In this document: in pieces, positions 2,142 through 13,264 of the stretch | Layout of the letters: every line of letters begins with the position of its first letter | Numbering within the stretch: the stretch's first letter is position 1 | DNA from: a virus | UHGV virus genome: UHGV-0376136 | DNA: 17,585 bases | Strand: one strand, 5' to 3' | The notes under the pieces: generated by a model | The model's database searches: none | What the model was told of the DNA's origin: nothing | The model's input: only the letters and a program-made list of their open reading frames with translations | Position numbers and translations under genes: made by a program

Positions 2142-3020
2142 TCAGTAGTTATGTACTGAAGGAGGTAATTCTTTATTCTTAAGTCTTATCCATGCGGAAA
2201 GATTCGTTGGTCCGTCTGGCTCATTAATATCAACATCTCGTGTGTGGTTTATTAAAACGTCTCTCGCCATTCCGATAACATACGAGAATTCATGACCGTA
2301 GTCGTAGCATCTGCCGGAATAGTTCGATTGAATTTGTTTTAGCGCCGGATACAGTTCGCGGAATAATGCCTGTGAACGGTTAGCATAATCCCATAGCCAT
2401 ACAAGGCTGTTTGCTTCTTTTGCAGAAAGCTCGTTGGTTTTCTTCTCTTGTTTGCCAATGAACTCACCTTCAAGCACTACCCTGTGGATGTACTCTACGG
2501 CCAGCGGGATTTGTTCAATTGAAAGCTCATCAATGCTGTCAATACCAAAACGCTGATGAACCATATTGTATGCATCGTCATAGCGAAGTCCTTTCTTTCC
2601 TACCAGCATGTTTACTGCATCGCGTAGCGGTGTTCTTTCCTCAACAGTGGTTTTCTTTCCTTTTACATACTCGCCATGTTTGCGAATTGAAGGCAGAACT
2701 TCTGCTGTTACCCACTTGCGGAATTTGTGCGGGACTGAACCTTTATTGACTGCATCGCGGCAGCGCAGAACCAATGTATACATACCTGATTCGCTCACAA
2801 TGCTTAGATTCTGCTCACCACCAAGGGTGTAACTTAAAGTTACTCCCTTTTCATCGTCATCAAGTGCAGTAAGCGCCTTGCGTGAGTTAGTCAAAGCTAA
2901 AGCATCACAAACATCTTTAGCTACAAACCACGGCTCGCCGCACTTGTTAATGACGCGAATTTCACTGTCGCCAAATTTGAAGATGGTGAAATCGTTTTGT
3001 GCCTTTGCTATACTTTTCAT
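2142..3020 (-). CDS. ant: Antirepressor Ant (Bro-N/AntA-type N-terminal domain), 292 aa
   Basis: Track ORF 2142..3086 trimmed to ATG at 3020 ([41 protein letters not shown]...[13 protein letters not shown]...[17 protein letters not shown]), colinear with my recollection of P22 Ant; the track start at 3086 is a GTG. Position after arc and before tailspike matches P22 immI. Confidence 0.85.
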
Positions 3021-3095
3021 GTCAATATTTCCTAAGCCGATTTGTTGATACCGAAGCCCTGACTGTTCCCGCAGTTGGGGCTTCACTGTTTTGAT
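3021..3095 (+). ncRNA. sar: Candidate sar-like antisense RNA covering the ant ribosome-binding site
   Basis: Plus-strand -10 TATACT (3009..3014) with weak -35 GTGAAA (2986..2991, 17-bp spacer) predicts a start near 3021, antisense to the ant start region. A plus-strand terminator-like hairpin follows. Arrangement analogous to P22 sar as I recall it; ends approximate. Confidence 0.3.
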
Positions 3096-3100
3096 TTCTT
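3053..3100 (+). terminator. Plus-strand terminator-like hairpin in the arc-ant spacer (proposed sar terminator)
   Basis: GAAGCCC (3053..3059) pairs with GGGCTTC (3078..3084); inner stem ACTG/CAGT; followed by T-rich actgttttgatttcttt. The minus-strand side is not T-rich, so it appears unidirectional. Confidence 0.4.
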
Positions 3101-3252
3101 TGCCGCATCAAGCATCACTTCTGAAAACGTGCGCTTGCCACTGAATACTCTTTCTCTTCTCAATTTTTCGTTCGTGCCAAATGATTCGCCATGAACAAAA
3201 TTTGGTCTTAAAATGGTAATCGCAATCTCTTTGACTACTGCATCCAAGCGAA

Positions 3253-3393
3253 TCACACCGTTATCCCCTCTCTCTTCAGGCTGTCCATCACCCGTTTAAT
3301 TACTTCTGCGCTAAATGAGCGACACTCTTCCTTTGCTTTCTCTTCAAGGATTTTTTCTAACTTCTCTGGCATACGCAGTGTTTTTACCTTCAT
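3253..3393 (-). CDS. arc: Arc-like ribbon-helix-helix repressor, 46 aa
   Basis: Not in ORF track (<60 aa). Minus-strand ATG at 3393 after GGAGGA RBS; translation MKVKTLRMPEKLEKILEEKAKEECRSFSAEVIKRVMDSLKREGITV, stop TGA at 3253..3255. Resembles P22 Arc as I recall it (...LRWPREVLDLVRKVAEENGRSVNSEIYQRVMESFKKEG...). Confidence 0.8.
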   Translation of the reverse strand: MKVKTLRMPEKLEKILEEKAKEECRSFSAEVIKRVMDSLKREGITV

Positions 3394-3405
3394 TGCATCC
3401 TCCGT

Positions 3406-3470
3406 TGTATGTGGTACGCATACATAGTATTTAGGTACGCATTGATAGTCAATAGATACCTACATATCCT
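3406..3470. promoter_or_regulatory. Divergent Pant/Pmnt promoter region with two palindromic operator candidates
   Basis: Minus-strand promoter: -35 TTGACT (plus 3447..3452), 17-bp spacer, -10 TACTAT (plus 3424..3429). Plus-strand promoter: -35 TTGATA (3442..3447), -10 TATCCT (3465..3470). Palindrome A: TGTATG-N7-CATACA (3406..3424). Palindrome B: TAGGTA-cgc-ATTGA-TAG-TCAAT-aga-TACCTA (3432..3462). Direct repeat GGTACGCAT at 3413..3421 and 3434..3442. Confidence 0.55.
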
Positions 3471-3498
3471 GTGGTAAAAAATTATTCAGGATGCGCCG

Positions 3499-3750
3499 AT
3501 GTCTGATCGTAAGTACAAAAACCCTCAAGTGAATCTGAGGCTTCCTGTAGAGATAAAGGAACGTCTTATTGAACTGGCTGAGGCTAATTCTCGTTCATTA
3601 AATGCTGAGATGGTCGCGGCACTTGAAGCATGGACCGAAAAAAATAAACACATTCAAGCACTAGACCTTGCAACTATAGCATCACGATTGATAGATCTTG
3701 AACACGATGTTGAGACGCTAAAGACCATGTATGCTAAGGATGAAAAATAA
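3499..3750 (+). CDS. mnt: Mnt-like ribbon-helix-helix repressor, 83 aa
   Basis: ATG 3499 with AGGA RBS 7 nt upstream; N-terminus NPQVNLRLPVEIKERLIELAEANSRSLNAEMVAALEAW fits the RHH beta-strand plus two helices; same length as P22 Mnt; divergent from arc across the operator region. Confidence 0.7.
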   Translation: MSDRKYKNPQVNLRLPVEIKERLIELAEANSRSLNAEMVAALEAWTEKNKHIQALDLATIASRLIDLEHDVETLKTMYAKDEK

Positions 3751-4286
3751 TGCTGCACACAATTCACTTCTTATGCCCTGTTAACACTGCCACTGTTGGG
3801 CAACTTCAGAACCACTGTCTCACCGCATTATCTCAAGGCGCAACTGAATTAAATATCCATATATCAAGTCAGGGAGGGGAAACTGCCGCTGGCTTTACTG
3901 CGTATAACTTTCTTAAGTCACTCCCTGTTACCGTTAGAACTCACAACATAAGCAATGTTGAATCCATAGCTAATATCGTTTTCCTGGCTGGCTCAGAACG
4001 TTTCGCAAACCCATTATCAAGATTCCTGTTACATCCTCTATTATGGGGCTTTGCCACCCCAGCCGCCGACCATGCCAGATTGAGAGAGTACGGGAAATGC
4101 CTCGATAACGATCTTGATCGCTTCGTTGAGACGTTCAATATCGACATCGGAACCCATATTAGGTGGGCATCCCTGATAGCAGACTCGACCATTTTGGATG
4201 CTAACAAGGCTCTTGAGCATGGCATAATTAATTCCATAAAAACTGCAAGGCTGGTATCCAATCAGGCAAACTGGTGGGTTGTTTGA
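3750..4286 (+). CDS. ClpP-like (S14-type, ClpP-fold) serine protease homologue, N-terminally truncated relative to ClpP, 178 aa
   Basis: Start ATG overlaps the mnt stop (TAATG at 3748..3752). By-eye alignment to E. coli ClpP: ISSQGGETAAGFTAY vs INSPGGVITAGMSIY; NVESIANIVFLAG vs QAASMGAFLLTAG (Ser aligned); PLSRFLLHP vs PNSRVMIHQP (His aligned); KALEHGIINSI vs EAVEYGLVDSI. Confidence 0.75.
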   Translation: MLHTIHFLCPVNTATVGQLQNHCLTALSQGATELNIHISSQGGETAAGFTAYNFLKSLPVTVRTHNISNVESIANIVFLAGSERFANPLSRFLLHPLLWGFATPAADHARLREYGKCLDNDLDRFVETFNIDIGTHIRWASLIADSTILDANKALEHGIINSIKTARLVSNQANWWVV

Positions 4287-11138: not shown

Positions 11139-12556
11139 TACTCAATCCTTATCTGGCAGCCTGACAGAGTGACAGGTGACTTAGTGATAACGCGCAATTT
11201 GAAGCCGACATTTTTCCTGATGCGCCCGACACGCTTCCACAAAACGCGTTTGTCGTAAACGAACGGTTCATTCTGCTCAATCATCTGCTCACGCCCGTAA
11301 TTGATGCCGTCAGTGGTTGCAGAGAGAAAAAGGCGGTCGGCGTACTGAGCTACGCCAGTGGATGATTCCACCTCCAGATCGAAGCATCTGGCGTTATCCG
11401 CTTTGAACAGTGGAGTAAACAGCAGGTGTTCCTGTTGCTTGTCGTACTGGCTGCTGATATCGAACTGCAATTTCCCGGTCACGGATTCCAGCTTATCGCC
11501 GCACGTTATCTGATTGCCTTCGTAAATGAAGTCGATAGCGCGGTACACATCGTCATACAGGCCTGTTTTCAGTACACACCATTGCGGACCATTAGCGCTT
11601 GAAGATGCGTCGTAAACAAGAACATGGCGCGGCAGGTGAATAATCAGCAACTCATGAGCATCAAACCGCAACGATTCCATCACGCCATCAGCCAGTTCAT
11701 CAGCAGTGTAGGAGCGTAGTATTTTCTCAATGCTCGCGCTGGCGATTGGTGATACCTGACCGGAGCCGATGATGTATACAGACGGCGCACCTGTTGCCGG
11801 ATTGCTGATGAACGCATAGGAATCAGCAAACGGCGTTTTGCAGTAAGTCCCGGCAATGCCTTTCTGCACCATCAGCGATGGTTGTGCAACATACAAAGCG
11901 GCACCAACGGTGGTTGCGCCAGTCAGGGAGAAATATTCAATCGTCGATGAACCAAAGCAGACGATGAAGTCTCGCCATGTGCCGATACCGATGATGCCGT
12001 CCGGCTGAGACTCGGCACGATATTGTGCGCTGTAGCGGTCAGGGTGCGATTCGTCTTCAAGGTCAGTGATAAACCATGAATCAGTACCGTCTTTTGACCA
12101 CGCATAACGCCCACGTAAACGCGTAATGTCACGGACCGAACCTAACTCATACTGCGTGAATCCGCTGTCCGTAGGCCAGTTTGAGACGGTTTTAACCGTG
12201 CCATCATAGCGGTATTCGACCAGTTGACCATTAACGCCTACCGCCTGTGATGTCCGACCATGTGCCATTGATACGCGACCACTTCCGGCAACATCACCGA
12301 CCTCGCTTTCTCCTTTGTACAGCTTGCCACCACATACGCGATAAACAGCATTCTGCGCCATGTTGTACTCGACGCCGCGAGATGCACCGTTCACATCAGA
12401 GCGTTTGGCAATGCCAGGGAATGAGCGAAGATATCCGCTGCTGTTGAGGATTTCTTTGGGTGTAGCCAACATATTCACTGGCAGATAGTCGATATAGTCG
12501 GCGTTTCGAAAGTCTTTGCCGACACCTTTCATAAGCGGAAGTTGCTGAATCGGCAT
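11138..12556 (-). CDS. 10: Tail accessory / head-completion protein (P22 gp10 family), 472 aa
   Basis: Same length and position as P22 gp10; translationally coupled at both ends. Confidence 0.85.
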
Positions 12557-13056: not shown

Positions 13057-13264
13057 CTGCTGCCGCCTTAGGTTTTCGACCAGGCTTTTTACGCTGTTTT
13101 TCTTCTGGCTCTGGCTCTGCAACATCCTTCAAAAGGTCATCAGGATGTGAAAACCAACCAGCATCCAGATATTCCTGAAGCTCTTCGGCTTTCACGATTT
13201 CAAAGTCGTAGCCAACGCCTTTCCACTTCTTCATGTCGCCATGACGAAAGATCATGTGTGTCAT
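13034..13264 (-). CDS. Small ORF (76 aa) between coat and gp4, with acidic middle and basic KKPGRKPK C-terminal tail; function unknown
   Basis: ATG at 13264 preceded by TATCTGGAG RBS immediately after the coat terminator; track ORF 13034..13312 would overlap the coat gene, so the internal start is preferred; 3' end overlaps the gp4 start by 23 nt. Product [76 protein letters not shown]. Confidence 0.45.

Follow-up and report, generated by a model that had tools for sequence, protein, structure and literature searches.

Positions 2986 to ~3091 on the plus strand of the virus genome UHGV-0376136 very probably constitute a sar gene, carried by a P22-like (Lederbergvirus-type) E. coli prophage and, by analogy with phage P22, expected to be expressed as a small RNA antisense to the translation start of the antirepressor gene ant. 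The element is of a kind already known, and it is an ordinary copy of the P22 sar family. When the whole window (the 17,585-nucleotide stretch of DNA analyzed here) was searched against Rfam, the sar family (RF00262) scored 64.4 bits at positions 3022..3087 (+), above its gathering score of 43 (E = 1.4e-11). This match covers the full length of the model (positions 1-68 of 68, not truncated), and sar was the sole Rfam family above threshold in the window. The element also forms two stem-loops, lies antisense to the ant ribosome binding site (RBS), and resides in an immunity I (immI) module, as sar does. The original prediction, a sar-like antisense RNA directed against the ant translation start, is therefore borne out by the family match, the offset of its promoter, the predicted fold, covariation among homologs, and the mnt-arc-ant context. 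A permissive Rfam rescan of the window added only a sub-threshold match to ctRNA_pGA1 (RF00236; 23.6 bits, where the gathering score is 45; E = 0.039), which covered the terminator hairpin only and was rejected as generic.

The window presents, in reverse orientation, the immunity-I region (“ant moron”) of a P22-like E. coli prophage. The immI module is complete, with mnt, arc, and ant all full length, and is flanked by DNA-transfer and tailspike genes of P22 type. Elsewhere, the window contains P22-type virion genes on the minus strand, and the nearest phage records are all members of Lederbergvirus (CUS-3, phiv205-1, Kapi1, Emek, epsilon34, and P22). The gene subject to regulation, ant (2142..3020, minus strand), encodes a 292-aa antirepressor with matches to Pfam Bro-N (7e-20) and P22_AR_C (7e-30) and to PHROG 245, ‘anti-repressor Ant’ (5e-112). 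The first gene of the Pant operon, arc (3253..3393, minus strand), encodes a 46-aa ribbon-helix-helix repressor of the Arc family (Pfam Arc, 2.9e-9). On the plus strand, an mnt-like gene (3499..3750) encodes an 83-aa Arc/Mnt-family repressor (Pfam Arc, 3.1e-10) that corresponds in position and length to mnt of P22 and epsilon34.

By analogy with P22, the region between arc and mnt (3394..3498) is assigned as the divergent promoter/operator region holding the equivalents of Pant and Pmnt, and would give rise to the ant mRNA that would be targeted by sar. Its best promoter-like sites (3452..3424 on the minus strand and 3442..3470 on the plus strand) are arranged back to back with overlapping -35 hexamers, whereas Pant and Pmnt overlap face to face in the P22 annotation. 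The same region contains GGTACGCAT twice and the palindrome TGTATGTGGTACGCATACA at 3406-3424, and these repeats and the palindrome are probable operators. Downstream of mnt, at 3750-4286 (+), is a gene for a 178-aa ClpP-like protein (Pfam CLP_protease, 4e-12; PHROG 94, ‘head maturation protease’) that lies outside the virion block. Its ATG overlaps the mnt stop codon (ATGA), so it is apparently co-transcribed with the maintenance repressor. Both phiv205-1 and E. coli PM4-5 carry this gene, and the O104:H4 prophages lack it.

The target site of sar on the ant mRNA (3018..3033, minus strand), as read from the sequence, is composed of a Shine-Dalgarno sequence, AGGAAA (3033..3028), a 7-nt spacer, and the ATG at 3020..3018. 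This ATG, which is preceded by a Shine-Dalgarno sequence and matches the ant starts of P22 and epsilon34, is likely the true start of ant. The open reading frame listing gave a longer, 314-aa version of ant that begins at a GTG at 3086 (2142-3086, minus strand). We rejected it, as it would read through sar and overlap the upstream open reading frame, ORF57. The equivalent GTG is nonetheless the start of the anti-repressor annotated in the record of Escherichia phage vB_EcoP_Kapi1 (positions 443-1387 of locus L003).

A promoter scan placed a predicted Psar at 2986..3014 (+), with a -35 element, GTGAAA, at 2986-2991, a 17-nt spacer, and a -10 element, TATACT, at 3009-3014 that is of the extended type (upstream TG at 3006-3007). 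The scan thus found the plus-strand promoter-like element of the original prediction, with the same -10 hexamer, and a start about 7 nt past the -10 (~3021) adjoins the ant ATG, in agreement with the proposal that transcription would begin at about the ant start codon, antisense to its RBS. Psar lies within ant codons 3-12, on the opposite strand. Its -35 is weak (four of six consensus matches), and promoter-like sites occur at chance frequency here (5 found and 5.0 expected from shuffles over 2.5 kb), so the assignment relies on the position that the element shares with the annotated Psar of P22 and of epsilon34, and not on the match to consensus. In P22 (BK000583), Psar is annotated at 682-710 of L005 with the ant ATG at 716, and in epsilon34 at 1182-1210 of L001 with the ant ATG at 1216. 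The predicted window promoter is collinear with these, would be convergent with Pant, and has the same geometry: a span of 29 nt and a distance of 6 nt to the ant ATG, with the annotated sar RNA beginning at the next base after the ATG. That the arrangement mirrors P22 sar, as first proposed, holds for the annotated features of both phages.

In an alignment of phages found by BLAST, the TG and -10 (TTGCTATA.T) were invariant in eight of nine. On the reverse strand, the -10 overlaps ant codons for Ser-Ile-Ala, which read AGT-ATA-GCA in eight of nine divergent phages. The synonymous positions of these codons are fixed as well, including those of the rare Ile codon ATA, an argument that selection acts on the DNA sequence itself, beyond any constraint on the Ant protein. 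The -10 is altered to TAAGCT in Emek and to TAAACT in a Klebsiella aerogenes copy (L131, ~2680-2760). In both, sar (677-810 of L006 in Emek) is found beside an ant allele whose N-terminal domain is KilA-N rather than Bro-N. The strength, and even the activity, of Psar may differ between alleles, and degraded -10 elements such as that of Emek indicate that not every sar copy need be active.

The predicted sar RNA corresponds to 3021..3091 (+), based on the RF00262 match and the fold, with ends placed by reference to the annotated P22 sar (717-786 of L005). Its 5′ end would be G3021 and its 3′ end would fall within the U-run at 3089-3092, giving ~69-72 nt, the low end of the 70-80 nt initially anticipated. 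The 71-nt RNA folds into two hairpins with a minimum free energy (MFE) of -29.7 kcal/mol (z = -5.7), and none of 200 shuffled sequences was as stable. P22 sar folds with nearly the same energy (-29.5 kcal/mol, z = -5.3), and the MFE structures of the two RNAs are superimposable. Hairpin 1 (3021..3049, plus strand) has a 7-bp stem (GUCAAUA/UGUUGAU) and a loop that contains UUUCCU (3028-3033), the complement of the ant Shine-Dalgarno sequence. Hairpin 2 (3053..3094, plus strand), the predicted Rho-independent terminator of sar, has a 14-bp stem (3053-3084) with a 4-nt loop, UCCC, and a U-rich tail. In the terminator scan, which found terminator-like sites to be moderately enriched (7 compared with 2.4 expected), this hairpin is followed on the plus strand by ACUGUUUUGAUUUCUUU, with the U-run at 3089-3092. 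Read on the minus strand, it is followed by GGUAUCAACAAAUC; there is no U-run after the hairpin on that strand and no minus-strand entry in the scan. The predicted terminator is thus specific to the plus strand, as had been proposed, but the extent originally given to it (3053..3100) was too long, as the stem ends at 3084 and the U-run at 3092.

We collected sar loci from IMG/VR with a degenerate sequence pattern, which returned 120 loci representing 55 distinct cores; because the pattern required TTGCTATA, GAAGCC, and GGGGCTT, and so held constant part of the -10 and part of the base of hairpin 2, conservation of those motifs in this set is built in. A covariance model was constructed from window-type copies, and 72 copies were aligned to it. 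Standard pairs occupied 96.8% of cells in this alignment; pairing counts from it lean towards the structure, since the alignment was fitted to the structure of the model. Changes on both sides were present in 11 of the 21 pairs, compared with 4.6 +/- 1.1 in shuffles (none of 500 reached the observed number), and pairing fell to 31-51% when the 3′ partners were slid by 1-3 columns. For hairpin 2, 99.1% of cells were paired across the 72 copies and four pairs had changed on both sides; for hairpin 1, compensatory changes were present in all seven pairs among the 72 homologs. RNAalifold applied to a plain MAFFT alignment yielded hairpin 2 alone, as the hairpin 1 arms do not line up from one allele to the next. 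Folded singly, all 41 distinct hairpin-1 variants formed the 5′-terminal stem, using at least six different arm sequences. Maintenance of hairpin 1 pairing by compensatory changes, despite an unconserved sequence, points to selection on RNA structure.

The window element and P22 sar are 83% identical over 81 nt and share the position of the annotated or predicted Psar inside ant, the -10 sequence (TTGCTATACT), a start beside the ant ATG, an anti-Shine-Dalgarno sequence in loop 1, a 14-bp terminator hairpin of near-identical sequence, and the mnt-arc-ant context. They differ in the arms of hairpin 1 (GUCAAUA/UGUUGAU in the window and GUUGGU/ACUGAC in P22, with compensation) and in the anti-Shine-Dalgarno sequence itself (UUUCCU in the window and UUCUCC in P22), which tracks the different RBSs of the two ant genes. 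The U-tail is better in the window (ACUGUUUUGAUUU) than in P22 (AACUUUACG). In P22 (BK000583), the sar RNA is 70 nt long and the arc stop codon falls in its last two bases, whereas in the window the stop codon located in the 3′ end of sar is that of ORF57. Among other phages, Kapi1 has a core, from the -10 to the terminator, that is identical to that of the window, but its arc directly abuts sar and ORF57 is missing, while prophages of E. coli PM4-5 and O104:H4 have the same ant-ORF57-arc-mnt order as the window. One IMG/VR contig, L130, contains two matches to the sar model ~1 kb apart (12072-12148, 30.0 bits, and 13137-13209, 28.6 bits), suggesting a duplicated sar-like element or tandem ant-type genes.

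By analogy with P22, where the experiments were done, the extended -10 promoter Psar, embedded in the first ant codons and convergent with Pant, would fire to produce a transcript of ~70 nt that starts beside the ant start codon, passes through the ant RBS in antisense orientation, and stops at an intrinsic terminator of its own, slightly within the 3′ end of the upstream open reading frame. The RNA would fold into its two hairpins, with loop 1 presenting the anti-Shine-Dalgarno sequence UUUCCU. It would be fully complementary to the Pant mRNA over the 70 nt before the ant AUG, and, if it accumulates as in P22, pairing would occlude the RBS and block translation of Ant. sar would thereby act after transcription as a further brake on antirepressor synthesis, which Mnt and Arc repress at the transcriptional level. 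Our statements about the mechanism in P22 are drawn from reviews and genome papers, which in turn cite the 1997 structural study of sar by Schaefer and McClure. In P22, sar is an RNA of 68/69 nt whose pairing with the ant mRNA inhibits translation of the antirepressor (PMC12197685), and the mechanism is also described in PMC11016777. sar has been seen by small-RNA sequencing during P22 infection (PMC13397905), and the same element is annotated in epsilon34 (PMC2629481).

The c4 RNA of phages P1 and P7 is, like sar, a small phage RNA that controls an antirepressor, but it has no sequence or structure homology to the element in the window, for which Rfam gives only sar. c4 arises by processing of a longer transcript from the same operon, and its target sites are located upstream; it is not known as a convergent cis-antisense transcript. 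In both phages, it blocks antirepressor synthesis by pairing around the ant RBS (PMC12197685).

The sole local peculiarity lies in the interval between arc and ant. The arc stop codon (3253) and the ant ATG (3020) are 232 nt apart, compared with ~70 nt between the genes in P22. The arc-ant spacer of about 230 nt in the original prediction was therefore correct in length but is not empty, as ORF57 (57 codons; 3083..3256, minus strand) fills it. The accompanying suspicion that the module might differ from that of P22 was right insofar as ORF57 is inserted between arc and sar, but the sar/ant arrangement itself is unchanged. The GTG start of ORF57 overlaps the arc stop codon (GTGA) and has GAGGGG 8 nt upstream, an arrangement typical of translational coupling, and its TGA stop codon (3085..3083) is located within the stem of the sar terminator.

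The coding status of ORF57, which was taken from the open reading frame listing, is uncertain, and the case that it encodes a functional protein is weak. Its sole PHROG match is phrog_17642 (1e-43), a family of unknown function, and searches of Pfam and PADLOC gave no match. A search of 5.8 billion proteins returned 10 clusters, all near-identical and unnamed, several of which show a frameshift at the C-terminus or an in-frame duplication. Members of the family come from a very narrow range (Escherichia and Klebsiella), and DNA identity is 100% among most copies. With 3 synonymous and 8 non-synonymous differences, the Klebsiella aerogenes copy was the most diverged one found, and the substitution pattern, which is limited to near-identical copies and this one diverged copy, gave no signal of purifying selection. 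The AlphaFold2 model is unreliable (mean pLDDT 54.3, pTM 0.26). ORF57 is annotated as hypothetical in phiv205-1 and in E. coli PM4-5 (WP_000620145.1 in the latter) and is unannotated in O104:H4 and CUS-3, although the DNA is present in both.

Among ~130 sar loci, arc lies directly at the sar terminator in most, ORF57 is present in 11 (always 3 nt past the hairpin), and unrelated small open reading frames are present in others. One and the same ORF57 DNA segment occurs together with three different hairpin-1/ant alleles. The presence of either ORF57 or unrelated open reading frames at the sar terminator indicates that the terminator coincides with a mosaic joint, with the sar/ant geometry unaltered, and the arc/sar-terminator junction has the appearance of a mosaic boundary or a hot-spot for insertions. 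Other open reading frames at this position were found in a minority of sar-bearing phages (loci L002 [CUS-3], L038, L055, L066, L006 [Emek], L054, L090, and others). That of L066 encodes 60 aa and matches Pfam zf-C4_ClpX (43 bits; gathering score, 27), that of CUS-3-type loci encodes 67 aa with a CxxC...CxxC motif, two (73 and 80 aa) have weak FlbD-like matches, and one of 89 aa appears hydrophobic by eye. A more specific reading, which we consider possible but rather unlikely, is that the junction is a dedicated slot in P22-like phages for interchangeable small cargo open reading frames, under Arc/Mnt control and directly before the sar-targeted ant leader, that ORF57 is a translated product of the immunity-I operon, and that sar pairing over the ORF57 stop codon could affect its expression or the fate of the mRNA. 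The cargo of such a slot would include ORF57 (phrog_17642) in the window and, elsewhere, ClpX-type zinc-finger peptides, a putative transmembrane peptide, and others.

It is far less probable that the window copy is a decayed or silent relic, homologous to sar but no longer transcribed or regulating ant, that persists through its overlap with the ant coding sequence and RBS. The damaged -10 of Emek (in a record that queries ant as defective), the altered -10 of the Klebsiella copy, and a promoter consensus match that alone does not exceed chance would all fit decay of this kind. The elements in the window, however, are all intact: the TG-extended TATACT is identical to that of P22, the -35 (GTGAAA) is closer to consensus than that of P22 (GTGTTA), the stems are perfect and are followed by a U-tail, the genes ant, arc, and mnt have kept their full length, and the core sequence is shared with a viable phage, Kapi1. 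Least probable of all is that the hairpin functions primarily as a recombination linker or as a processing or stability element of the Pant mRNA, with TATACT merely reflecting the conserved Ant N-terminus and no antisense RNA produced: the CUS-3 record does label the interval ‘boundary sequence’, and mosaic joints do flank the hairpin (different open reading frames upstream, different ant alleles downstream, and the one ORF57 segment joined to three hairpin-1/ant types), but compensation in every pair of the otherwise unconserved hairpin 1, a U-run present only on the plus strand (as fits a plus-strand terminator and not a minus-strand mRNA element), fixed synonymous positions in Ser-Ile-Ala, the rare ATA among them, and experimental demonstration of the RNA in P22 (PMC12197685, PMC13397905) all stand against it, and the roles of linker and sar are not mutually exclusive.

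The same element recurs in E. coli. The 109-nt segment composed of the promoter and RNA was detected in 648 of 5426 complete E. coli genomes (~12%), in 502 of them at a coverage of at least 80%, and the sar element is 96-99% identical in several hundred complete genomes. No RNA feature is annotated at sar in Kapi1 or in any of the E. coli (RefSeq) records inspected, and the finding matters little beyond annotation. If the feature were added to these records, some wrongly placed ant starts could be put right, for example that at the GTG at 3086, which reads through sar. The variable small open reading frames between arc and sar provide a minor lead for research on phage accessory genes (morons). 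Judged by sequence, a common class of E. coli prophages appears to have the classic sar/ant antisense switch of P22 in intact form.
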